DNA of 64,000 bases from an uncultured archaeon (GTDB lineage: Archaea > Asgardarchaeota > Heimdallarchaeia > Heimdallarchaeales > Heimdallarchaeaceae). Positions 5,635 to 54,970 of the stretch are shown here, in pieces (position 1 is the first letter of the stretch; each line of letters opens with the position of its first letter). The notes under the pieces were generated by a model. It did not search any database. It saw nothing but the letters and a program-made list of their open reading frames with translations, and was not told the DNA's origin. Position numbers and translations under genes: made by a program. The stretch lies in assembly GCA_964534625.1 (NCBI GenBank), contig CAZHRF010000003.1, forward strand, positions 32,001-96,000, read 5' to 3'.

Positions 5635-8492
5635 GGAGATAGATAGCGAATGTTTTTAACTTAAATACTTAGGTCTCATAATATTGAGTAAGAGATGAAT
5701 TGATGAAAGATAGTATGGGACAGTGGAACTCAACTACTAAAGAGAAGGGAGAGATATTCATCAAAAAGAGACTCGAGGATATAAATCGTCCTAAAATTAT
5801 TACTATACACAAATATATTCAAAAATCAGACCAAGACATATCAGCTATTTTCTCCCAAGAGATCAATCATCTAAAGAATTTTATTAGAATTACTGGACAA
5901 AAAAATGAAGAAGAAATAGTAGCTGTTGAATTTTTAAAATTACTTTTACAAAAAGTAAAAAAAAGAGATCCTTATATCAAGAATTTAGGTGAGTGGCCAA
6001 AATCAATATTGTTATTCTGGAGAGAATATTATAACTTACTAATCTTAAACCAAATAAATAAATTGAAATTGGGTAACTACAAAAACACCAGATATTTGAA
6101 AAAAGGTGAGCTAGAAGCACTACTAAGGTTATTTCTTCACTTCAGTGGAGTAAAACAAAAAAATTACACCCAAAAGCACGCAGAAAACTTGCAAAAAGTT
6201 TGGATAAAACTACATAGTAAATATGATATATTATTACAAAGAATCAATGAATTACAAATAGAGAATGTTCTTTTTGAAGGTTTAGACAAAGCCAACACTA
6301 CGGGTGGTCTAGATAATATTCAAATATATAAATTGTCTAAAAAAACAAAACTTGCTTATGTTTTTACAACACTAAAATTGGGAAATACTGCAAAAAAGGA
6401 GTTTTATTACTACCATCACACGAAAAGTGATGGGAATTATTCAAGTAAGTGGTATGAAAACTTCATTAAAGCAGGTTTGAAAAAAAATCTTGTCCAACAT
6501 ATCGATTCAATGTTGAAGAATTTACCATATATTTCTACTGAGAAAAAGAAATATATCAAACAATTGCTTCTACTCAGATACAGATTTGTACAAGATTCAA
6601 TGGGCGGAGATTTCTTAAATAAATTAAACCAGCAAAGTAAATTCAATTTAGAAAAATCCATTGCTAAATCTTTAGCTAATTCAAGAACCTATAAGTACAA
6701 TGTTAATGTCCATATGAATGGACTGATTAAGCTCAATCAATTGGTTGAGTTATTTCAGAATGGAGGAACAAGAAGAATTACTAAAAACAAGAACCAACAT
6801 CAAAGAGTTTCAAATGATGTCCTCTCCGCTATAGAAATGAAAATGAAAAAAGCAGAAAAAACTTGCAATTTTATAGTTCATGCAAGTTCATTTTATCCTC
6901 TTCTTGAAGTTGACAACAACCAGATTTATGTTAGTGTTAAAGGATTCAATCTGGAAAAATATAACAAGGGAAGTCAAGAGTATTTTATAGCTAAATCCTT
7001 AAATTCCTTAATTAAAGAGATATCAGAAAATACAGCCCAAGAATTTGGATCTAATCTAAAGATTCAGAAGTTTTTACAGAGTGATAAAACAATTGTTGAG
7101 CTTATCACAAATTATCAACGAAAACTATTGAATAGAATGATCAAAAGGGGATTTATTCAAGAATTCACAAACTATTGGGATGAAAAAAATAGTTTCTTTA
7201 CTTTTTCAACGATGTCAGAACAACCAGAAACAATAAATAAGGCAGTTTACAGAAAGTTACGAATATATAGTGTATTTCCATATGATATCATACAACATTG
7301 GGATTTTCCAACAAATAATACACTTAAAGAATTATTAAAAATAAATACCTTTCCATCAAAAATCTGGGAGGACTATCACAAATCAATTTTCCAGCTAATA
7401 AAAAGGAAAAATTTCAATAAAAATATGTTAGAAATTAAGGGGGAGTTTCAAAGTAATAATATCGACATAGATAAAAAGGGAATAGCAATTCTAAAGTCTA
7501 CTAGTTCTTTCATCTGCTTACCTGGTAGTGGAATGGGAAATGCACATCTGTTTTTTGGACAAAAAAGGGAAAAACTTGTTTTCACTTTTGTTGATGAACA
7601 AGGTAATGTACTAACTATACCAAAACGAAGTAGAGGCGTAGTATTATATTATGAGTTTAATCATAAACTAGAAAATAAAAAAAACGAGACATATGATGGA
7701 CTGATCTTACCACTATGGGTTAATTGGGATAATGAAATATTAAGAGTGAGATTTCAATGTGGTAAAAAAAGGATATTAAAATACTGGTTAAGTAATTTAG
7801 AGATGGAATATGGATTACCAAAGAATATTATTAATAAAATGAAAAATGGGGTCGTCTTAAATCAAGTTGATACTGAATTAATGGTTGTTTTTGTACTTAT
7901 TTGTCAAATATTCGTTAAAAACTGGGATATACATCTAGAAAAAATGTGGAAATCTCGAGAAATAAGAAAGTGGTTAAAAACGGAAAATGTTGAAGTATTA
8001 CGTGATAATGATAACAAATGGACATTTATCCATCAAAACACAAAAATGCAAGTATATCCTGCTATTGCAAAAAAAAGAGCTAAAGCCAATAAGCTTCAAT
8101 CAGGACCCTTTTTAATACCACATAAGAACAGTATACTTGGAAAGTATATTGATAATCTTGTGAAAAGGTTAAAGAAACTAATAAGAGAGAATCCAGATGA
8201 TGAAGCGGTAAAAAAAATAAGTAAATGGTACGAAAATTGAAAAGAAAAAAAATCAAAGAAGTTTTTCCAATTCATCTACAAAATATTCATATTGCTCCAT
8301 ACCTTTCTTCCAGAAATCAGGATCGGAAATATCTACACCCATTTCTTTACCTAACTCTTCAGGAGACTTACTACCACCAGTAGAAAGCAGATTTTTGAAT
8401 TTTGGAATAAAGGATTGACCTTCTTCTTGATAAATCCTATACAAAGCGTAAACAAATAATTGGGCGAAGGTATAAGGATAATTATAAAAACG
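5635..8492. mobile_element. Putative single-gene integrative element inserted in the 3' end of pepF
   Basis: Orphan gene bracketed by a ~270-bp direct repeat that includes the pepF C-terminal coding region; no recognisable integrase. Confidence 0.55.
5700..8240 (+). CDS. Large Lys/Asn-rich hypothetical protein (846 aa)
   Basis: Long uninterrupted ORF with a TATA-like TTAAAT at 5661-5666; no family recognised. Confidence 0.85.
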   Translation: MMKDSMGQWNSTTKEKGEIFIKKRLEDINRPKIITIHKYIQKSDQDISAIFSQEINHLKNFIRITGQKNEEEIVAVEFLKLLLQKVKKRDPYIKNLGEWPKSILLFWREYYNLLILNQINKLKLGNYKNTRYLKKGELEALLRLFLHFSGVKQKNYTQKHAENLQKVWIKLHSKYDILLQRINELQIENVLFEGLDKANTTGGLDNIQIYKLSKKTKLAYVFTTLKLGNTAKKEFYYYHHTKSDGNYSSKWYENFIKAGLKKNLVQHIDSMLKNLPYISTEKKKYIKQLLLLRYRFVQDSMGGDFLNKLNQQSKFNLEKSIAKSLANSRTYKYNVNVHMNGLIKLNQLVELFQNGGTRRITKNKNQHQRVSNDVLSAIEMKMKKAEKTCNFIVHASSFYPLLEVDNNQIYVSVKGFNLEKYNKGSQEYFIAKSLNSLIKEISENTAQEFGSNLKIQKFLQSDKTIVELITNYQRKLLNRMIKRGFIQEFTNYWDEKNSFFTFSTMSEQPETINKAVYRKLRIYSVFPYDIIQHWDFPTNNTLKELLKINTFPSKIWEDYHKSIFQLIKRKNFNKNMLEIKGEFQSNNIDIDKKGIAILKSTSSFICLPGSGMGNAHLFFGQKREKLVFTFVDEQGNVLTIPKRSRGVVLYYEFNHKLENKKNETYDGLILPLWVNWDNEILRVRFQCGKKRILKYWLSNLEMEYGLPKNIINKMKNGVVLNQVDTELMVVFVLICQIFVKNWDIHLEKMWKSREIRKWLKTENVEVLRDNDNKWTFIHQNTKMQVYPAIAKKRAKANKLQSGPFLIPHKNSILGKYIDNLVKRLKKLIRENPDDEAVKKISKWYEN

Positions 8493-10040
8493 AAAGTTGG
8501 GCATATAGTAATGCGGTTTCATCGTCCATTCCCATTTCATTTCTTCAAAGTATTCCATTGCTTCTCCATATACTTTGTCTCTTCCTTTTTCCCATCTTTC
8601 CGCTATCGCTTTTCCATCCAACATTGTTCCTTCTTTTATCGCTTCATAGAGACTTTCTTCAAACCAATATCTTGCACTTACTTGAAATATAGCCATCCCC
8701 GCTCCGTCCAGTATATTGCACAAAATTGCTTTCTTTTCCTTATCATTTTCTGCTTTTTTCAGTAACATATCAGTTAGGAGTAACTCGCCAAAAATTGATG
8801 CCGTTTCCGCTATCACCATTGGTGCTCTAGAGTTGAATCTTGTTTGATTAGCATATGAATAGTAATTGTGTGTTGCATGCCCCAATTCATGAGCTAGAGT
8901 ATATATATTATCCAATGAACCAGTATACGTTTGAAGTATAAATGATGTTTCGTTCATATATGATCCCGAACAAAAAGCCCCATTTCTTTTTCCAAATCTT
9001 GGACTAGCATCTATATGGTTTAGTTCAAACATATTTTTCACACATGTCGCATATTCTTCATCAAAATCCTCGTATGCCTTAGTTACTGTTTCTCTTGCTT
9101 CTTTCCATGAGTAGTTCACTTCATCTGTTGTAATGGGGGCGACTACATCATAGTTTTGTAGGGGTACAGGTAATTCCATTATCTTTGCTTTTAGTCTTAA
9201 ATATCTTTGATACAAAGGAGCATTGGTTTCTACTGATGTCATTAAGTTATCAATGATTTCTTGTGATACGTCATTTATTAAATAACTAGCATCTTTTGCT
9301 GTTTTAAAATTTCTACGATTAACAATTTGCATCCAGTCCCCACAGACATTTCTAAGTGCGGAAGAAAATATTATCTCGTCTTTACCTAGACCAGCATAAA
9401 TAGCCCTATATGCTGACTCTCTTGTTGCTCTATCAGGGTGAGTAAACAAGCCATTGGCTTGACCATACGAGAGTTCTTTTTTTTCTCCTTCTACTTCTAC
9501 CTCAAACATTCGGGTATTAAGCCATTTAGATTGAAGTTGATTCCATCCGCTAACTCCAAATTGGTCTTTCTCGATAATTAATTGTTCTTCAACCTCGCTA
9601 AGCTGGTGAGGAACGCGGTTTTTTAATTTTTCCAGATAGTGTTCATAAACAGCTAATTCATCACTTTCCATAAACTCGGGATGATCATAGATCCACTTTC
9701 CTAGTTCAAGATCAACAAAAGCCAACTTTTTTTCAATTTCGGAACTAGCATCTTGAGACATATTAAACAAGGACTGAGTGTCTGATAAAGTCATATTCGC
9801 AGAAAAACTTAAGCTGGCAAACTGAGCCATATTTGTATACTCACTTAAGAAATTCTCCATGGTTTCAATAAGGTGATAGGCGTCTTTAGTAGAAAAACTT
9901 TCCGTATTTATTTTTCCTTTGTATTTATTTTCTATCTTAGAGGCCTTCGCTTTTAATTCTTGGAACTTTTCTTTAACCTTAGGCAAGTCTATACTTGGAT
10001 AAAGTACAGATAAATCCCAAGTAATTTCCTTTTCGTTCAT
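8253..10040 (-). CDS. pepF: Oligoendopeptidase F (M3B)
   Basis: WDLSVLY N-terminus, KRNGAFC, HELGH zinc motif, AETAS, HYY...FYNYPY. Confidence 0.96.
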   Translation of the reverse strand: MNEKEITWDLSVLYPSIDLPKVKEKFQELKAKASKIENKYKGKINTESFSTKDAYHLIETMENFLSEYTNMAQFASLSFSANMTLSDTQSLFNMSQDASSEIEKKLAFVDLELGKWIYDHPEFMESDELAVYEHYLEKLKNRVPHQLSEVEEQLIIEKDQFGVSGWNQLQSKWLNTRMFEVEVEGEKKELSYGQANGLFTHPDRATRESAYRAIYAGLGKDEIIFSSALRNVCGDWMQIVNRRNFKTAKDASYLINDVSQEIIDNLMTSVETNAPLYQRYLRLKAKIMELPVPLQNYDVVAPITTDEVNYSWKEARETVTKAYEDFDEEYATCVKNMFELNHIDASPRFGKRNGAFCSGSYMNETSFILQTYTGSLDNIYTLAHELGHATHNYYSYANQTRFNSRAPMVIAETASIFGELLLTDMLLKKAENDKEKKAILCNILDGAGMAIFQVSARYWFEESLYEAIKEGTMLDGKAIAERWEKGRDKVYGEAMEYFEEMKWEWTMKPHYYMPNFRFYNYPYTFAQLFVYALYRIYQEEGQSFIPKFKNLLSTGGSKSPEELGKEMGVDISDPDFWKKGMEQYEYFVDELEKLL

Positions 10041-10233
10041 AATAATCTTGATACGAGAGATATATATACATAAAAGGATAACGCAAGGACAAACTTTGAT
10101 TTATACTGAAATTCAGAGAATATTTGAAAAAAATAAGCAAAAGATAGAGACCCTTTTTTTACTGAAGAGGGGTTATTATTTGAAAGTTATTCAGAATAAT
10201 GAAAATTAATAAAGTTCAACATAAGGCGGAATA

Positions 10234-10599
10234 TTACATATTAACAAAATCTTCAGGAACATATCCTTGATTTACTAACCAACGAACTTCATTTCTTCTA
10301 AATCTATGAACAAGTTCTCCACGTTCTTCAGGATGAGACATACCATAATTGGGCATCACAATTACAAGGTCACCAACACGACACCACATCCGTTTTCTGA
10401 ATCTCCCGGGGATCCTTATTTTTCTTAAATTGCCATCTAAACAATTAACCAACAAATATCCTGCGCCTAATATTTGGACTACAACACCAAATATCTCGCC
10501 TTCACCAGGCAATTTGGCTCTAATTGCGTCAGAATATTCTGAGACCCAATCGTCTGAGCCCTTATTTTTGCTTTTTCCGCCTTTTTCTTTTTTAGACAA
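10234..10599 (-). CDS. eif1a: Translation initiation factor aIF-1A
   Basis: EIFGVVVQILGAG, CLDG, RIPGRFRKRMW..GDLVIV. Confidence 0.95.
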   Translation of the reverse strand: MSKKEKGGKSKNKGSDDWVSEYSDAIRAKLPGEGEIFGVVVQILGAGYLLVNCLDGNLRKIRIPGRFRKRMWCRVGDLVIVMPNYGMSHPEERGELVHRFRRNEVRWLVNQGYVPEDFVNM

Positions 10600-10874
10600 T
10601 ATGTATTACCTCAAGTCTTCATTAATGACGTTCTTAAAATAGTTTTTGATGTTTATGAATAAAATAGTAAAAATGATTAGCAAAAAAAAAGATAATAGAA
10701 AAAATTTGTTAAAAAATCTGTTAAAAAATAACCATAAAAAAAGGCTAGCACAATTTGTAAAAATTCTTAAAATAATTAATTATCGTGAACTTGAAATAGT
10801 ATAATAAAAATAAATTTCCAATCAAACGAAACAGAAAAAAAGGCATAATTATTCTTTAACTTGGTGTCCTAAAA

Positions 10875-11285
10875 ATGGAATATGATGATTTATTGAAGAG
10901 AGCACGTAAAGACTTACCAGATACTATCTTTAAACAAACACGTTTCGAAATCCCCCACGTTCGTTCAAATATTGAAGGAAATAAGACATTTTTAACCAAT
11001 ATTCGAGAGATATTAGATACAATAAACCGTGACGGAAATCACTTTCTAAAATATTTAGCGGGAGAATTGGCAACCGCTGTAAATATGGAAGGTAACAGAG
11101 CAGTGTTCGCAGGAAAACATGCAAGATTAACACTACAAAAACTTTTAGAAAAATATATCGAGGAATATGTTTTCTGTAACGAGTGTGGAAAACCCGATAC
11201 TAAGTTGATAAGCGAAGATAGAATGATGAAAAAACGTTGTGCAGCATGTGGGGCTAAAATTGCCGTTAAACCACTAAGAAGATAA
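10875..11285 (+). CDS. eif2b: Translation initiation factor aIF-2 beta subunit
   Basis: MEYDDLLKRA, RFEIP, EGNKT, YVFCNECGKPDT...CAACGA. Confidence 0.96.
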   Translation: MEYDDLLKRARKDLPDTIFKQTRFEIPHVRSNIEGNKTFLTNIREILDTINRDGNHFLKYLAGELATAVNMEGNRAVFAGKHARLTLQKLLEKYIEEYVFCNECGKPDTKLISEDRMMKKRCAACGAKIAVKPLRR

Positions 11286-11300
11286 ATACAAAAGCGTAAA

Positions 11301-11624
11301 TTGATGCGAATGAAGAAATATTATATGAAAGTAATAGAACGACCTAATGAAAAACTCGTTACCGTATGTGACGAAGAGATAATGGAGACAGTATTGCTTT
11401 CAAACAACGTAAAAATTAAACCAACTAAAAAATTCTACGGAACAGAACTTGTGAATCAGAAGGAATTGCTTGATGCACTAAGAAATTGCACATCTGCAAA
11501 TGTAATAGGAACAAATATAGTGAACTTCATGATACAAAAAAAACTCATCCATGAAAGATCAGTTTTGTGGTTAAAGTATCCTGATAAGAAAGGAAAAGTA
11601 GGACACGCAATATTGATACGATAA
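11301..11624 (+). CDS. DUF424 family protein
   Basis: LVTVCDEEI, KFYG, ANVIG; usual neighbour of aIF-2beta and NMD3. Confidence 0.85.
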   Translation: MMRMKKYYMKVIERPNEKLVTVCDEEIMETVLLSNNVKIKPTKKFYGTELVNQKELLDALRNCTSANVIGTNIVNFMIQKKLIHERSVLWLKYPDKKGKVGHAILIR

Positions 11625-11694
11625 AGAAAAAAAAGACACCAAAGAAAATTAGTATGGAAAAACAATACTTATTTTATGGCAAGAACTATTTTTT

Positions 11695-12804
11695 TTGAAG
11701 ATAAAAATGTCGAGTAGATTTTGTGCTATTTGTGGAACTAAGCAAGGACCTTTTGTAAAGAACCTCTGTGAAGAATGTTATAAAAAGGAATATCCTCTAA
11801 AAATAAATATCCCAGATAAAGTAGAAATAGAGATTTGCCCAAGTTGTAGAGCAATAAAACACAAGGGCGTAACTATACCCACATGGGACGAGGAAGAAAT
11901 AGGGGGTATCATCGGAGATTTAGCAAGAAGTATCGTGAGTGAAAAATTAAGAGTGCGGTTTCCTTACACGTTGAAATTTGATGATAATATAGAAGAAAGA
12001 AAAATAATGAATAAAGGAGTAAAGTTTTTTGAATTAAAGACAATAATCCAAGCACGCCCATATGAAGAATTTGGAGAAGTGAAAGAAGAACATATAACAA
12101 AGATATACACAATGAAAGTTCCATGCAATGAATGTACAAAATTAAAGGGAGGATATTTTGAAGCAATAATACAAATTAGGGCGGAAAATAGAAAACCTAC
12201 TGATGATGAGATTAATACAGCAGACCAAATAATTACACAAGTGTTGAATGACCATGCTAATTCCAAATTGATGTATATTTTAGACTATAAGATAGATAAA
12301 AATGGCATTACAGGGAAAGTTAGTTCAAAATTGCTAGCAGAAGAAATGGCAAAAAAGATCAGGGATTCTCTCGCTGCAACATATAGTGTGGCTTATGAGT
12401 TGAAAACTGTTTCAAGCGAAGGACAAAAAGTATATACAAATACATACCTGGTAAAACTATCAAAACTAACTAAAGAGGATATAGTAGAATTTGAAGGAAC
12501 AATGTGGAAAGTTTTAGATATACATAAAAGTTTGATTAAGAGTGAAAATCTTGAAAATCATGAAATAAAATACTTGCACAGAAGAACAATGGAAGAACAA
12601 TCGGAAAAGAGAAATGAACAAATAATAGAAAGAGAATATATGGTACTGGCAAAAGAGAACGATATAGCAATGATGATGACAATGGATAACTATGAAAATT
12701 ATGAAGACAAATGGGAAAAGCTACCACAAGGAACAGAAGTGGGGAAAACAGTCAAAGGATTTCTGTTTGAAGAGAAAAACTATTACGTAGAAGAAAAAAA
12801 ATAG
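11695..12804 (+). CDS. NMD3-like large-subunit biogenesis protein
   Basis: Four CxxC pairs (CAIC, CEEC, CPSC, CNEC) and GGYFEAIIQIR. Confidence 0.93.
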   Translation: MKIKMSSRFCAICGTKQGPFVKNLCEECYKKEYPLKINIPDKVEIEICPSCRAIKHKGVTIPTWDEEEIGGIIGDLARSIVSEKLRVRFPYTLKFDDNIEERKIMNKGVKFFELKTIIQARPYEEFGEVKEEHITKIYTMKVPCNECTKLKGGYFEAIIQIRAENRKPTDDEINTADQIITQVLNDHANSKLMYILDYKIDKNGITGKVSSKLLAEEMAKKIRDSLAATYSVAYELKTVSSEGQKVYTNTYLVKLSKLTKEDIVEFEGTMWKVLDIHKSLIKSENLENHEIKYLHRRTMEEQSEKRNEQIIEREYMVLAKENDIAMMMTMDNYENYEDKWEKLPQGTEVGKTVKGFLFEEKNYYVEEKK

Positions 12805-12861
12805 CTATCAATTGTTCTATAACCATTGAACAGATTTAAGTGCAACTAAAAATAACTTAAT

Positions 12862-12992
12862 TGGGAACAAACCATAGATGCGATGATAAAAAATTGGTTT
12901 GATGATCATTAGAGAGGAGTAGACTCTGGAGCAATGAGCAGAAAATGGTTGAAGTGCAAAACTGGTAACCACAGAATTGCACACAGTTCCCA
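12862..12992 (+). ncRNA. Box C/D guide sRNA predicted to methylate C34 and C39 of pre-tRNA-Trp
   Basis: TATA-like TTTAAG 12835-40; terminal stem TGGGAAC/GTTCCCA. Boxes: C GCGATGA 12880-86, D' ATGA 12902-05, C'-like AGAGGA 12913-18, D ATGA 12934-37. Guides of 9 bp and 12 bp are complementary to the adjacent pre-tRNA. Confidence 0.75.
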
Positions 12993-13141
12993 CTAAAAAA
13001 TCAGATTTTGAGTAATTTATGAAGGGTTTCTACTTGTTTTCATATTGTTTTTGTATGTTTTTCACCAAACAACTTAAAATTTGAATTTAAGGCTCAAATC
13101 ATATAGTTATAAATTTGAGTAAGAGAAATTTAATAAAAAAT

Positions 13142-13248
13142 TGGTGGGGACTAGGATATTTGAAATCCTGACCAACTGGTTTTTTCGCGTGACCGATTAC
13201 CGGTCAGACTCTGGAGCCAGCCACTCTACCTGACTGAGCTAAGTCCCC
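13142..13248 (-). tRNA. tRNA-Trp(CCA) with a 30-nt intron at 37/38 (13181-13210), CCA encoded
   Basis: GGGGACT/AGTCCCC acceptor stem, GCTGG-CTCCAG|A-CCAGT anticodon arm, AGGAT-TTCAAAT-ATCCT T arm; TTTAAA about 21-26 nt upstream. Confidence 0.95.
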
Positions 13249-13603
13249 TGTATGCGCGCTAGGCGCCGTTTAAATGTGTTTTGTGTGTTCCCTAAGTAAG
13301 GGATTCTTTTGTATTTTCTTTTTTTCTTTTCATCTTTTAAGGATTTCTGTTATTTCAGTACTTCCGAAATAGCGTAAGGAAACATCAAAATCAAGAAATA
13401 AGGCGAATTATTTTTGTTCTGAACATTTCAAACAGGATATCAACTGCTTAATTCGGGAGTATTATATTTCTAGTACATACAAAAATGATTTCCTACCCTA
13501 TTTGGAAATATTTTGTTTACTTGGGTAGTTGAAAGTCTTTAATGCTGCTTCTTTTATCATTATCTATTTTCTCTTTACCACTCTTTTTTCAACTATTTTT
13601 TAT

Positions 13604-14002
13604 CTATGCTTAGCCAGAAGACCCACTCCTTGAGGGGTGAGATGAATGGCAAAAAAACACAACAAAAGTCAGTTTTAGCATACAAACATTTTGTAAGGAT
13701 GCTGTCTTTGTGTACGTGTTTTGGTACCATCTCGAAAACCAAGAGTGGTAGGAGACAAGAAGAACAAGATGGAAGTAGAAGATAGGGCTACACATTAAAC
13801 AACGATAATGGGTATACGTATCTACCTAAGTAAGGGTATTGAGGACTTCCGATGTAGAGTCGGTACGTTGTGTGTACTAGAACCATGTACCGTCGGAACA
13901 ACGGGACCTATAGACGACGGTTGTGGAGAAGAGTTCAGCCCTCATTTTGAGGCCACTTCGTTGAAGCAAGAAACCATCTGCCTTTAGGTAGTGGTAGTTC
14001 AT
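13604..14002 (+). mobile_element. Non-autonomous IS200/IS605-family derivative (no tnpA/tnpB) with omegaRNA-like right end
   Basis: Left-end hairpin (AAGA-CCCACTCCTTGAGGGGTGAG-ATGAATGG) preceded by TTAT. Right end GAAA-CCATCTGCCTTTAGGTAGTGG-TAGTTCAT. TnpB-3'-type GTACCGTCGGAACAACGGGA...TGTGGAGA segment. Confidence 0.8.
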
Positions 14003-14665
14003 TTAATGTATCTGAAATGTTCTGATTATCTTTTCTTTCAGGCTCAGATGCTTTCCTTCTCCTTTTGTTTCTCTTTTTCTTATTTTTTCCAACAATTCTT
14101 CTACTGTTTCAACTTTTTCTCCCACTCTCGTATATGCCATGCCTATATCTTTTATTCTATGCGCATCACTTCCTCCTGTTTCTCCCAGTTTGTTTTTTTG
14201 TGCATATTGCTTTGCTTTTTCGTTGAACTTTTGTATAAATGTTGCCCCATTTTGTGTTTCTATTATCACATTTTGCAGTTTTTCCATTCTTTTTCCCACC
14301 CCTTTTCTCATAAAATCATATGGATGAGCCATTACCACCTCTCCCCCTTCTTCTCTTATTTTTTCTACTGTTTCCTCTAATGTCATTCTTTTTTGAATAT
14401 TTTCTCTTACTCCCAACCCTATTACGTGTCCTCCCTCTGTTGATATTTCTATCCCAGGAACTATCAGTATACCTGTTTCTATTTTTACTCTTTTATGGAA
14501 TTTTACCGTATCATGATCTGTTATTGCTATTCCTTTTAGTCCCATTTTTTCTGCTGTTTTTATTATTACCTTAGGTTCGCTCTTGCAATCTGCAGAATAC
14601 TTACTATGTACATGTAAATCATAGTGGAAAACAGATTTTCTTCCTTCTTTTTCACTTTTCTCCAT
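14003..14665 (-). CDS. PHP-domain metal-dependent phosphoesterase
   Basis: DLHVHS, AITDHD, GIEIST, AHP and GGSDAH motifs. Confidence 0.93.
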   Translation of the reverse strand: MEKSEKEGRKSVFHYDLHVHSKYSADCKSEPKVIIKTAEKMGLKGIAITDHDTVKFHKRVKIETGILIVPGIEISTEGGHVIGLGVRENIQKRMTLEETVEKIREEGGEVVMAHPYDFMRKGVGKRMEKLQNVIIETQNGATFIQKFNEKAKQYAQKNKLGETGGSDAHRIKDIGMAYTRVGEKVETVEELLEKIRKRETKGEGKHLSLKEKIIRTFQIH

Positions 14666-14686
14666 GTTTATTGCTCTTTTTCAGTC

Positions 14687-15355
14687 CTATTCTTCATCTT
14701 CTTCTTGTTCTGCTTCATCTTCTTCTTCAAACACTATTCTTTCTAATTGATCCAAATCTGTTATAGTTACTTTATCTTCTTCTTTATTTGGATTTATCCA
14801 TAATTTGCTTCTATTTCGCTTTATTTCTTCTATTTTCTTATTTATAAACGCATATACACTCCCATGTTTTGCCCCTCCAATCAGTCTTTCTATTGCTTCT
14901 CTCGCTATTTCCATTTGTTCATATGACCCTATTATTCCTATTGTATTGCCATAAACAGATATATATGCCCCTGTTGCATTTTCTATGTATCTTCTTGTTC
15001 TTCCTTTTGCCCCTATTATCCTTGCTTTTACTGTTCTTATCAAGTTTGGCGAATTTCCCAATCTATCTCTCAAATTTATTAACATGAACTGATTATCGTT
15101 TTCCGCAATTGTCAACGCTTTTTGTGGGTTAAAACCTCTTGCTATTGCTTTTACCACTTCTCTTGCTTGCATATGTACAATAGGATTTTCTATTTCTTCT
15201 TTTTCTTCTTTTACAATTATTACATCTCCCGACTGACTATCTATTTGCAATTCACACTCTGTCAAGTCTTCTATCTGTTTTTTTACTTCTCCATTTGAGC
15301 CTATTAGTACTCCTAATCTTTTTCTTGGGACGCGTATTAAGTATTCATTTGACAT
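14687..15355 (-). CDS. KH-domain pre-rRNA processing protein (Dim2/Pno1-like)
   Basis: GVLIGSNG, KAIARGF, RIIGAKGRTR, GAKHGSVY; follows Rio1. Confidence 0.93.
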   Translation of the reverse strand: MSNEYLIRVPRKRLGVLIGSNGEVKKQIEDLTECELQIDSQSGDVIIVKEEKEEIENPIVHMQAREVVKAIARGFNPQKALTIAENDNQFMLINLRDRLGNSPNLIRTVKARIIGAKGRTRRYIENATGAYISVYGNTIGIIGSYEQMEIAREAIERLIGGAKHGSVYAFINKKIEEIKRNRSKLWINPNKEEDKVTITDLDQLERIVFEEEDEAEQEEDEE

Positions 15356-15395
15356 TTTTTACACCGTTTATTCTTTACTTTTCACTTATTTTCAT

Positions 15396-16226
15396 TCAAT
15401 ATTTATCATAGAGTTGAAATTTCGGGTCTGGTTTACTTCCTACTATTGCTTCATAAAGTTCATCATTTTGGACAACATTTGCTCCTAAATAGCCAAAATG
15501 TCCATTAATGTTTCTTATATCTCTATATAAGAAATAATGTGCAAAAGGATGACCAATTAATACTGATTGTGACACATCTATAATTATTGGTTCATCTTCA
15601 TAATACAGTATATTGTATTCACTTAAATCAGCATGAACTATTTCTCCTTCTTTATACATTAATTTGATATATTTTATTATTTTCTTGTAAACTTTCTCTA
15701 TTTTCTCTTCATCTAGTTCAACTTCTCGTAACAATGGCGCAGCTTGTTGTTTTTTTCCTATGTACTCCATCACTAGTATATTATTTCGTATATAGTATGA
15801 TTCTGGTACTCTCACTCCCACTTTTTTCATTCTCTGTAAATTTTTGAATTCTTTTTTTGCCCAGAGGTACACAAATGAATACGTACCTTTCTTATAGTGT
15901 TGAAATCTTGGGTCACCTTGTACATATTTCCAGTTTTTCTTGAATTCTGCTGTTGTTGTTCGGTATATTTTTATGGCTAATTCTTCATTCTCTTTATTAT
16001 ATCCATGATATACATTTGCTTCCTTTCCAGTGGCAATAACAAAGTTAATATCCTTTATTATACCCTTATTCATCATTTTTACGAGATCATATCGCGTTTT
16101 CCTATCGAATACAGATTCTAGTACCTTTAACGCATCTGAATCTTTCTCTATATTCCTTCTCCTTTCTTTGTCGATTTTATTCTCTATTTTGTCTTGTTCA
16201 TAGGGGTCATCATATCTTGGAACCAT
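15396..16226 (-). CDS. rio1: RIO1 family serine kinase/ATPase
   Basis: ATGKEANVY, AIKIYR, WAKKEFKNL, VHADLSEYNIL, IIDVSQSV. Confidence 0.96.
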   Translation of the reverse strand: MVPRYDDPYEQDKIENKIDKERRRNIEKDSDALKVLESVFDRKTRYDLVKMMNKGIIKDINFVIATGKEANVYHGYNKENEELAIKIYRTTTAEFKKNWKYVQGDPRFQHYKKGTYSFVYLWAKKEFKNLQRMKKVGVRVPESYYIRNNILVMEYIGKKQQAAPLLREVELDEEKIEKVYKKIIKYIKLMYKEGEIVHADLSEYNILYYEDEPIIIDVSQSVLIGHPFAHYFLYRDIRNINGHFGYLGANVVQNDELYEAIVGSKPDPKFQLYDKY

Positions 16227-16370
16227 TTATTTCACCTCTTCCCCTCCATCTGAAAAAATATTTGTCATATTCATTTGGAGGTAATCATTGGAAACAATAT
16301 ACTAAATATAACGCTTATACTATTTAGAATAAATTTTAATTAAAAAGGTAAGGATTATGCCACTTTTTTA

Positions 16371-17699
16371 TCACGTTTTTCCATGTTTGTTTTTTTCCCA
16401 ATCTTCATATTGTTCAAGTAATGAATTTATAACCTCTGTTATATCTTCATTTTCTTTATTTTTTCTATCAAAAAACACTTTATTGTCTTCCACTTCTATC
16501 ATGAATTCTTCAGGTAATCCATATATCCATTTTAATAATTCAGTTTTAGAAACAAATTCTAATAATTCCATTAATACATCTATAGTTATCGATTCAGTTT
16601 TTTTTACTAAACGGTTAAATGTTTTTACTCTTTCTTCTTTTTTTCTTTCTTGTTCTTCAACCATTTTTTTCTGTTCTTCTTTTTTTCTTTCTTCCCTCTC
16701 TTTTTCTTTTCTCTTTTTTTCTTCTACTTCTTCATGTTTTTTTCTAATGGTTTCTTGTTCTAGCATTCTTGCTTGTTTTTCACTTTCAATTTTTCTTTCT
16801 TCCTTTACTCTCTGTTCTTCCCATATTTTTGGTGCCCATATACTTAATCTATTCGCTGTTGATGCCACATAAATATAATTCCCATCTGCTATTACTGATT
16901 TTATTCTACCTCTATACTTTAATGCTATGACTTTGGTCCAATTACTCCTTCTCCATACTGTTATTAATGAATCACTCGTCCCAACATACACATAATTTTT
17001 ATCTGCATAGATACAATAGATAATTGATAATGGTGAATGTTTTAATTTTTGTTTTTTTTCAAATCCATCTTTTTTCCATATATGTAAAAATTTCTCACTT
17101 GAACCCACAAAAATGTATTCGGAATCTACGTGTATTGCGTGAACACCTGTAAATAGAGGTAATTTTATACGCTGATATTCTCTCCAATTGGCTTTGTCCC
17201 AAACGATTATATTTTGACCACAACCAGCATATACAAAATAGTAATCTTCTGCTAATGCTTTTATTTCTCCTTGATGTCTAATTGCCTTTTCAAGTTTCCA
17301 TTTATCTTTTGTCCATATTCTCAAATAAAAATCCGTGGAACCAGTATACAACCGTTTATTATCGGATACAATTGATTGAACAAAACCATCGTGTTTCAAT
17401 GTTATAATTGGTTCAAAAGTTTTCTTTGACCATACTTTAACTGTTCCATCATTGGATGCTGAATAGAGATATTTCTTATCTACATATACTTGATTTACAT
17501 CACCATTATGTTCTAGTTTTACGATTTCATTCCAAGTATGTTTTTCCCAGACGCGAACAAAATCATCGTTACTCCCAGTATATACATATTTTTTATCAAC
17601 ACACACAGATGAAACTTCATCTTTATGTTTAAACTCCTTTACTTTTCGTATCTCTCTCTCTTCTTTTGATGACATTTTCTTGTAGTTCTTTCTCATCAA
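16371..17699 (-). CDS. WD40-repeat beta-propeller protein with charged coiled coil and small C-terminal domain
   Basis: About 7 repeats of H..V..V..D..YLY.GS.D...RVW followed by an E/K/R-rich helix. Confidence 0.88.
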   Translation of the reverse strand: MMRKNYKKMSSKEEREIRKVKEFKHKDEVSSVCVDKKYVYTGSNDDFVRVWEKHTWNEIVKLEHNGDVNQVYVDKKYLYSASNDGTVKVWSKKTFEPIITLKHDGFVQSIVSDNKRLYTGSTDFYLRIWTKDKWKLEKAIRHQGEIKALAEDYYFVYAGCGQNIIVWDKANWREYQRIKLPLFTGVHAIHVDSEYIFVGSSEKFLHIWKKDGFEKKQKLKHSPLSIIYCIYADKNYVYVGTSDSLITVWRRSNWTKVIALKYRGRIKSVIADGNYIYVASTANRLSIWAPKIWEEQRVKEERKIESEKQARMLEQETIRKKHEEVEEKKRKEKEREERKKEEQKKMVEEQERKKEERVKTFNRLVKKTESITIDVLMELLEFVSKTELLKWIYGLPEEFMIEVEDNKVFFDRKNKENEDITEVINSLLEQYEDWEKNKHGKT

Positions 17700-17810
17700 G
17701 TGTAATAAATATTTTCAAAGGCATAATTACTCACCAATCATACAATCATAATAATCAGATAAAATCTAATAATAATAATAATAATAAAAACAATTCAGAT
17801 CGAATTCTCT

Positions 17811-18119
17811 TTACTCTAAATTCCACATTTCTTTTTCTTCCATTGTTATTTCAGTTACATATTTTATCATTCTTTTATATGCTTCAAGAAAACGGCCTCC
17901 CCGTCTAGTGGCGATATATGCTGAATCTATCCTCTTATCATCGCTTTCTATTTGTGCCACGAGTCCTCTTTTAATCAAAAAATCCAACATTTTTCGAACA
18001 CGATCAACCGGTATATTGGCTCGTCGTCCTATTTGAGAAACGCCCGCTTCTCTATAAAATTCGAGTACCATCAACATCTCTGCATATATATCATATCTCG
18101 TTCTATTTTTCACTAGCAA
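17811..18119 (-). CDS. Winged-helix DNA-binding protein (ArnR1-like/HTH_45)
   Basis: RTRYDIYAEML, IGRRANI, LIKRGLV, YIATRRGGRFL. Confidence 0.8.
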   Translation of the reverse strand: MLVKNRTRYDIYAEMLMVLEFYREAGVSQIGRRANIPVDRVRKMLDFLIKRGLVAQIESDDKRIDSAYIATRRGGRFLEAYKRMIKYVTEITMEEKEMWNLE

Positions 18120-33256: not shown

Positions 33257-33339
33257 TGGAGCCACGACGGGGATTTGAACCCCGGAGCCTAAAGGCAATG
33301 CCTTAGCAGAGCATCTCCATACCGCTTGGATATCGTGGC
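33257..33339 (-). tRNA. tRNA-Ser(GCT), CCA encoded
   Basis: GCCACGA/TCGTGGC acceptor stem, ATGCT-CTGCTAA-GGCAT anticodon arm, variable arm GCC-TTTA-GGC, CGGGG-TTCAAAT-CCCCG T arm. Confidence 0.93.
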
Positions 33340-37554: not shown

Positions 37555-37888
37555 CGACTGAAATCGCCCATAGAACCTGTAGTTCGACCTCACGTCAGAA
37601 GCCGTTTCCACCTTATCAGCTCCACACCGATTATTACGTGCATCACACATCGTTCTTAGGGGTGCTTACTTCCGTACCTAACCCATTTTGAACTAAACCT
37701 TTCTAATGCTCCCCTCCGGGAACACCTCTGGTTTGCGCAATCTCGTAAGTCGATGCTTCAACGCGTACTAAGGAAGGCGTATCTTTCCTCAGTAAGGCCT
37801 CGGCAACAGTATTCGTCCCAGCATATAGAGCGTTTCTGGTTATAGGGTAGCCCTAACACCCCGACTAGTTTTCTACCGATTTCAGTTG
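37555..37888 (-). ncRNA. ffs: Signal recognition particle RNA (archaeal 7S)
   Basis: Helix 8 TAGG-TAC-GGAA-GTA-AGCA (within 37660-84), helix 6 with a GGAG loop, Alu-domain CCCTATAACCAGAAA, terminal helix ACTGAAATCG/CGATTTCAGT. Confidence 0.93.
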
Positions 37889-54894: not shown

Positions 54895-54970
54895 TGGTGG
54901 GGCAAGGCGGAATTGAACCGCCGACTTTCGCTGTGTGAGAGCGATATCATAGCCACTAGATCATTGCCCC
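54895..54970 (-). tRNA. tRNA-Val(CAC), CCA encoded
   Basis: GGGGCAA/TTGCCCC acceptor stem, TCGCT-CTCACAC-AGCGA anticodon arm, GGCGG-TTCAATT-CCGCC T arm. Confidence 0.96.

Follow-up and report, generated by a model that had tools for sequence, protein, structure and literature searches.

Box C/D guide RNAs that direct methylation of the anticodon arm before splicing have been described for archaeal tRNA-Trp and tRNA-Met. The guide for positions 34 and 39 of tRNA-Trp has been reported as "always intronic" and that for C34 of tRNA-Met as always exonic; both pair with the intron and act before its removal, and evidence that the intronic Trp guide can act in trans was obtained in vitro (PMC2584109; reviewed in PMC7994747). 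A further C/D sRNA, Pyrobaculum sR26, has been predicted for C34 of tRNA-Trp (PMC6009581). The ATP-dependent ligase Rnl closes ordinary C/D sRNAs into circles, and the Trp intron is circularised by way of its BHB motif (PMC9014305); the terminal BHB motifs of pre-rRNA and of the Thermoproteus SRP RNA are cut by the splicing endonuclease, with closure by RtcB (PMC7994747, PMC7714728). We found no published free-standing C/D sRNA flanked by a BHB. Trp, guides and box C also go unmentioned in a 2026 preprint devoted to tRNA introns in Asgard archaea (10.64898/2026.10.13.758758).

Here, we analyzed a 64,000-nt stretch of DNA (the window) from a 3.37-Mb genome of 32% GC belonging to the Heimdallarchaeaceae (family f1; 31 genomes in five genera, g1 to g5). 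A box C/D RNA core at 12883-12937 on the + strand faces an intron-containing tRNA-Trp(CCA) gene on the - strand, with 150 nt separating the predicted end of the RNA (12992) from the end of the tRNA (13142; Table 1). An earlier note on this DNA had described the same arrangement and both guides, as well as a tRNA intron of only 30 nt; we recover all of these at the same coordinates, and no C/D boxes were found in 13210..13181. Boxes C, D' and D occur in the order expected of an archaeal box C/D sRNA, with D and D' reading ATGA rather than CTGA and with a C' box that is degenerate here and clear in relatives. Among the Rfam C/D families, the best match at the locus is sR39 (16.6 bits against a gathering threshold of 50, E 0.11), and RF01133 (sR3) gives none.

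The C/D core is found 75 nt past the stop of an ORF (11695-12804) that we take to encode NMD3, as judged from gene order and sequence features rather than from a family scan. Folding suggests that the RNA is probably larger than its core, namely a structured transcript of 131 nt with tRNA-like flanks in which a terminal stem closes the whole, a second stem carries the C/D core and, after a linker of 3 nt, a hairpin takes the position of a T-arm; both transcript ends (12862 and 12992) are predictions of this model. The guide may have its own promoter, the candidate being a single TATA-like hexamer of a kind common in a 32% GC genome. The upstream regions of tRNA genes in this genome gave no usable TATA spacing, and a sigma-70 promoter scan was set aside as not applicable to archaea.

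Table 1. Features of the guide RNA locus and of the facing tRNA-Trp gene (window coordinates).
Feature	Position	Strand	Remarks
TATA-like hexamer, candidate guide promoter	12835..12840	+	28 nt before stem start; putative
Predicted host transcript of guide, 131 nt	12862..12992	+	Fold -33.9 kcal/mol, z -3.3; also a constrained fold
7-bp terminal stem, tRNA acceptor stem-like	12862-68 / 12986-92	+	Closes the predicted host transcript
5' arm of stem closing the C/D core	12870..12881	+	12870-75 pairs with 12945-50; 12879-81 with 12938-40
Box C	12883..12889	+	One mismatch to RUGAUGA; TGA invariant in 21 aligned copies
D' guide	12892..12900	+	G12897 pairs with C39; compensatory changes in genus g5 and family f3
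Box D' (ATGA)	12902..12905	+	Invariant in 21 aligned copies
Box C' (degenerate here)	about 12915..12921	+	Aligns with ATGATT of relatives, clear there
D guide, spanning the exon 1-intron junction	12921..12932	+	G12929 pairs with C34; 8-nt core invariant in 21 aligned copies
Box D (ATGA)	12934..12937	+	ATGA D box also in the intronic guides of family f5
3' extension	12945..12992	+	Stem strand, 3-nt linker, hairpin 12954-82 at the T-arm place, acceptor-like 3' strand
tRNA-Trp exon 2, CCA encoded	13142..13180	-	A38 = 13180, C39 = 13179
tRNA-Trp intron, 30 nt, at 37/38 (after G37)	13181..13210	-	No C/D boxes; BHB central helix with 2/4 standard pairs
tRNA-Trp exon 1	13211..13248	-	C34 = 13214
TATA-like hexamer of the tRNA-Trp gene	13269..13274	-	26 nt before tRNA start; putative

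The 12-mer that forms the D guide is the exact complement of the precursor from G31 to intron position +6 (12/12), across the 5' splice junction, whereas the D' guide forms 9 bp (one G-U) with the segment from intron position -2 to U44. The fifth base upstream of box D (G12929) and of box D' (G12897) each make the N+5 Watson-Crick pair, with C34 and C39, respectively; as the earlier note had pointed out, this is the assignment of the intronic guide. Throughout the 3.37-Mb genome the 12-mer occurs three times, in the guide, in the tRNA and in one apparently coding stretch, and of the 86 C/D-like patterns with a terminal stem only this one offers a guide of at least 10 bp to any pre-tRNA. The two guides differ in their preference for the precursor. 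Here, the D guide and the precursor form 12 Watson-Crick pairs and one G-U pair, compared with 8 bp on mature tRNA, and its pairing is longer with the precursor in every genome tabulated, often by only 9 versus 8 bp. For the D' guide of this genome, mature tRNA gives 10 bp (-11.3 kcal/mol) versus 9 bp (-9.4 kcal/mol) for the precursor. The D' guide is also broken in some relatives, namely four g4 genomes (G016, G024, G013 and G043), which makes C34 the firmer target and C39 the weaker claim. We conclude that the RNA very probably guides methylation of C34, and regard guidance at C39 as probable.

These properties place the RNA closest to the euryarchaeal intronic Trp guide (Haloferax volcanii; Pyrococcus sR50), with which it shares both targets, 34 and 39, and the pairing across splice junctions, although position 39 is C here and U in Haloferax. 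It differs in lying outside the tRNA gene, on the opposite strand, with a tRNA intron in the 27-38 nt range that holds no boxes. The guides of g4/g5 relatives further resemble the intronic type in still being enclosed by a BHB; that of the present genome has no canonical one. The RNA probably works like sR50 and descends from it, though it is not an intronic member of the type. The Met C34 guide (Pyrococcus sR49; Haloferax sR-tMet) is likewise a separate gene that pairs with part of an intron and must act before splicing (PMC2584109, PMC4033218), but it targets one position in another tRNA, and in the cited literature we found no derivation of it from its target's own intron or from a tRNA-like cassette. 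Pairing across the intron is inherited rather than new, having been described for both the Trp and the Met guides (PMC2584109). Pyrobaculum sR26 is also a C/D sRNA for Trp C34, but it was predicted on mature tRNA sequences and for one site; given this prediction, a non-intronic Trp guide is probably not unprecedented (PMC6009581). Finally, the g4/g5 cassettes are predicted to undergo the same BHB cut and closure as pre-rRNA and Thermoproteus SRP RNA, in contrast to the cassette in the window, which lacks a canonical BHB.

Within family f1, the guide pattern was detected in 23 of 31 genomes (none in the reversed control), and a sequence model found matches at E<1e-11 in 27 of 31. Named Heimdallarchaeota genomes also match the pattern, among them Ca. 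Heimdallarchaeum aukensis PM71 and Ca. H. endolithica PR6. The guide lies on the same contig as tRNA-Trp, 88-4288 nt away, in all 19 genomes checked; among these, it is downstream on the same strand in g2, g3 and g4, upstream and divergent in g5, and convergent in the present genome only, a peculiarity that, like the tRNA-like flanks, goes beyond the earlier note. Different genes are inserted between tRNA-Trp and guide in the g4 loci L160-L172 (0 to 4.3 kb), in the manner of an insertion hot spot. Free-standing guides also occur in two other families of the order, in 11 of 12 genomes of f3, as detected with a tighter pattern, and in two of three of f4. These are ordinary short-stemmed sRNAs without tRNA remnants and, where checked, lie on other contigs than the tRNA, so they are uninformative on the route by which the guide left the intron. 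A loose phylum-wide pattern returned mostly chance matches and was discarded. Outside f3, the tighter pattern gave only scattered, apparently coding matches, including 9 of 135 in family f20, which we read as "not found" rather than "absent". The f20 Trp introns (L240-L242) are short (about 22-30 nt), the BHB helix of most of them is mismatched opposite C34, and no guide was found nearby or by pattern.

Covariation of guide and intron ends, proposed as a check in the earlier note, is indeed present. The D guide tracks the first bases of the intron (AG/CU in f1, AUU/AAU in f3, ACU/AGU in f4 and UG/CA in G019), the D' guide of g5 matches exon U41 and the intron -1 U, and when D guides were paired with each other's targets, 10 of the 12 rows had the guide's own target in first or joint first place. 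Separately, a C/D-like RNA that stands free at around position 1500 of L201 (genome G084) contains an antisense element to CUCCAGAU, although the Trp intron of G084 starts with AG and contains a guide itself.

In the other orders of this class, as well as in additional Asgard families, the guide resides inside the Trp intron: f5 and f6 have complete dual guides, f13 has four boxes, and f7, f9 and f27 have partial guides consisting of an antisense element and a C'/D' motif. Trp introns of about 55-70 nt in L129, L231-L234 (family f7), L291 and L299 contain a clean C'/D' motif and an antisense element to C34 without recognisable terminal C and D boxes, and possibly represent half-guides. A match in G116 was rejected because it is not a tRNA. 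The intronic state also occurs inside family f1, where genome G019 and metagenome contig L262 hold a whole guide in a Trp intron of about 85 nt; their tRNA-Trp directly follows NMD3, placed and oriented as the free guide is in the window. The two form a clade (100% support) sister to the rest of g4 (rest 76%, g4 98%), and the RpoB tree resolves the genera as g5, (g1, g3), (g2, g4), with weak support at the base. Because outgroup Asgard families and the early-branching G019/L262 lineage carry the guide in the intron, the intronic form is most likely ancestral for the class and the free-standing form derived. We therefore hold with considerable confidence that the free-standing guide descends from an intron. 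Relatives' tRNA-Trp genes often have a second intervening sequence (L147 from G019, L148 from G020, L238, L239, L019, L262 and L259), which interrupts the T-loop, the variable region, the D-loop or the anticodon stem and causes standard tRNA scans to miss these genes.

The flanks of the free-standing f1 guides contain tRNA-like parts, and which parts depends on the genus. A canonical BHB encloses the guide in 17 of 23 loci versus 1.1 expected from shuffles, and in one fixed register the motif occurs in 23 of 23 g4 and g5 loci examined, with compensatory changes; as the loci are kin, these counts cannot be taken as independent. The central helix of the motif opens with CU, as at tRNA positions 32-33, and the predicted excised piece measures 83-90 nt. 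The flanks in g2 match the T-stem and acceptor of the genomes' own tRNA-Trp (P 0.007 and 0.011; two related genomes), while the 3' flanks of g3-g5 show no significant likeness to tRNA-Trp. In the present genome, the stem around the core has at most a relaxed BHB-like geometry, and the 3' extension is weakly similar to tRNA 3' halves (P 0.016, best of 46 tRNAs; P 0.11 for its own Trp exon 2). Within that extension, 12961-67 matches exon 2 over 7 nt, but relatives do not conserve this match and it was dropped. Together, the BHB in g4/g5, the acceptor and T-stem in g2 and the acceptor-like stem here suggest duplication of the pre-tRNA-Trp gene followed by a decay that took a different course from genus to genus, an origin that we favor with some reserve.

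Whether the guide left the intron once or repeatedly bears on this history. A single early exit in the order, with the guide re-acquired by G019/L262 through gene conversion between neighbouring tRNA and cassette, would fit the presence of the free-standing form in all five f1 genera, f3 and f4, the tRNA-then-guide order that g2 shares with its sister g4, and the same changed central helix in the g4 and g5 cassettes. It is also the shorter path: under equal costs, a single exit followed by re-entry in the G019 lineage is more parsimonious than several exits. However, the intronic lineage branches first in g4, the position and orientation of the guide differ between genera, and the cassette stems resemble, by eye, the anticodon stem of their own genus (CAG/CUG in g5, GUU/AAC in g4). 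On balance, we consider this course of events unlikely, though it is the alternative that fares best.

The short intron itself has a weak splice motif. Its BHB central helix has 2/4 standard pairs, compared with 4/4 in 11 other canonical introns of the genome, and is imperfect in 31 of 31 genomes tabulated, mostly opposite C34. This weak helix may ease opening of the arm by the guide. The idea that it evolved to buy time for a guide in trans, as a consequence of externalisation, was rejected: the helix is also imperfect in the intronic-guide forms (G019, f5) and thus predates the guide's move. Just upstream of the TATA-like box of tRNA-Trp lies a short inverted repeat (13289-13303), flagged as terminator-like on the + strand, and a GC-rich stretch (13251-13265) separates that box from the tRNA start.

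The earlier note had further proposed that the mini-intron forces methylation before splicing. For the D guide and C34 the longer precursor pairing speaks for this view; the D' guide does not discriminate here, so that for C39 the pairing speaks for neither order. One might instead suppose that the RNA acts mainly on spliced tRNA, or serves as a folding or splicing chaperone for the weak splice motif with methylation secondary. That the D' guide pairs with mature tRNA as well as with the precursor, that the D guide still forms 8 bp there, and that the Trp helix is imperfect where those of 11 other canonical introns are complete would all agree. Against it, the guides change along with the intron from genus to genus, no copy departs from strict N+5 geometry on C34, the weak helix is shared by the intronic forms, and G37 is modified in archaeal tRNA-Trp (PMC7668247), which should shorten pairing with the mature molecule. 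We therefore regard this role as improbable.

A still more doubtful alternative reverses the direction, such that the free-standing guide is older and was captured by the introns of euryarchaea and other Asgard archaea. Free-standing position-34 guides do exist elsewhere (Met, PMC2584109; Pyrobaculum sR26, predicted for Trp C34, PMC6009581), and the f3/f4 guides have no intron remnants. Intronic guides, however, are found in other orders of the class, in further Asgard families and in at least 29 archaea (PMC2584109), and a guide with no past inside a tRNA is difficult to reconcile with the BHB and tRNA remnants that flank it in f1. Between the two options of the earlier note, externalisation and a pre-capture state, the outgroup families with the guide in the intron thus favor the former. 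That the pairing is a chance match or a non-functional local duplication of the tRNA antisense strand, as an AT-rich genome with many TGA words, the non-canonical boxes and a best Rfam C/D match below threshold might suggest, is refuted by conservation and covariation across three families and by the empty reversed-pattern control, and has a negligible chance of being correct.

The genome encodes fibrillarin, Nop5 and L7Ae-family proteins, along with two splicing endonuclease subunits, one with the catalytic His and one without, which fits the (alpha-beta)2 type. Endonucleases of this type have a relaxed substrate range. The guide and tRNA-Trp lie in a cluster (8253-18119) that, going by sequence features, comprises eIF1A, eIF2-beta, DUF424, NMD3, a PHP phosphoesterase, a KH protein and RIO1 kinase. 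Compared with genus g4, both the tRNA and the PHP-KH-RIO1 block have a different arrangement in this genome. Elsewhere in the window are an archaeal SRP RNA (37568-37878), tRNA-Ser(GCT) (33257-33339) and tRNA-Val(CAC) (54895-54970). Among the loci collected, L085 and L113 contain near-identical stretches beside tRNA-Gln in bins labelled Bathyarchaeota and Methanosarcinales, one of which is probably misbinned.

We consider it probable, taking the explanation as a whole, that the RNA is a free-standing, trans-acting guide of intronic descent, likeliest by way of pre-tRNA-Trp duplication. L7Ae, Nop5 and fibrillarin together with the guide would open the anticodon arm of pre-tRNA-Trp in trans, and 2'-O-methylation of C34 by the D guide, and probably of C39 by the D' guide, would most likely precede removal of the intron. 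The guide would have originated in the tRNA-Trp intron, where other Asgard archaea and euryarchaea have it; following duplication, the likeliest route, one pre-tRNA-Trp copy would have kept its exons and shrunk its intron, and the other kept the guide and lost tRNA function. The tRNA remnants, differing by genus, probably serve maturation of the guide, by the splicing endonuclease where the BHB survives and by RNase P and tRNase Z in cases like the present one, with an acceptor-like stem left. In a fuller scenario, which we put forward tentatively as somewhat short of probable, the tRNA-Trp gene was duplicated in the Heimdallarchaeaceae and the two jobs were split, perhaps more than once; the pseudo-pre-tRNA copy would yield only the guide, matured by tRNA-processing enzymes (in g4/g5 by the endonuclease, with RtcB closing a circle, and in g1/g2 by RNase P and tRNase Z), and the intronic, cassette and plain stand-alone states would survive side by side in one order.

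Neither the chemistry nor the machinery of this system is new. The locus does provide a counter-example to the published rule that the Trp 34/39 guide is "always intronic", and a natural variant restricted to action in trans, for a system in which the choice between cis and trans in vivo had been left open (PMC2584109). Our model predicts a circular 83-nt cassette RNA, as well as Cm34 and Cm39, in Ca. Heimdallarchaeum aukensis and Ca. H. endolithica, for which complete genomes are available. These relatives of the eukaryote ancestor present a series of states from an intron-hosted to an independent guide gene, and, if the fuller scenario is true, the surviving states would show that passage to have been stepwise.
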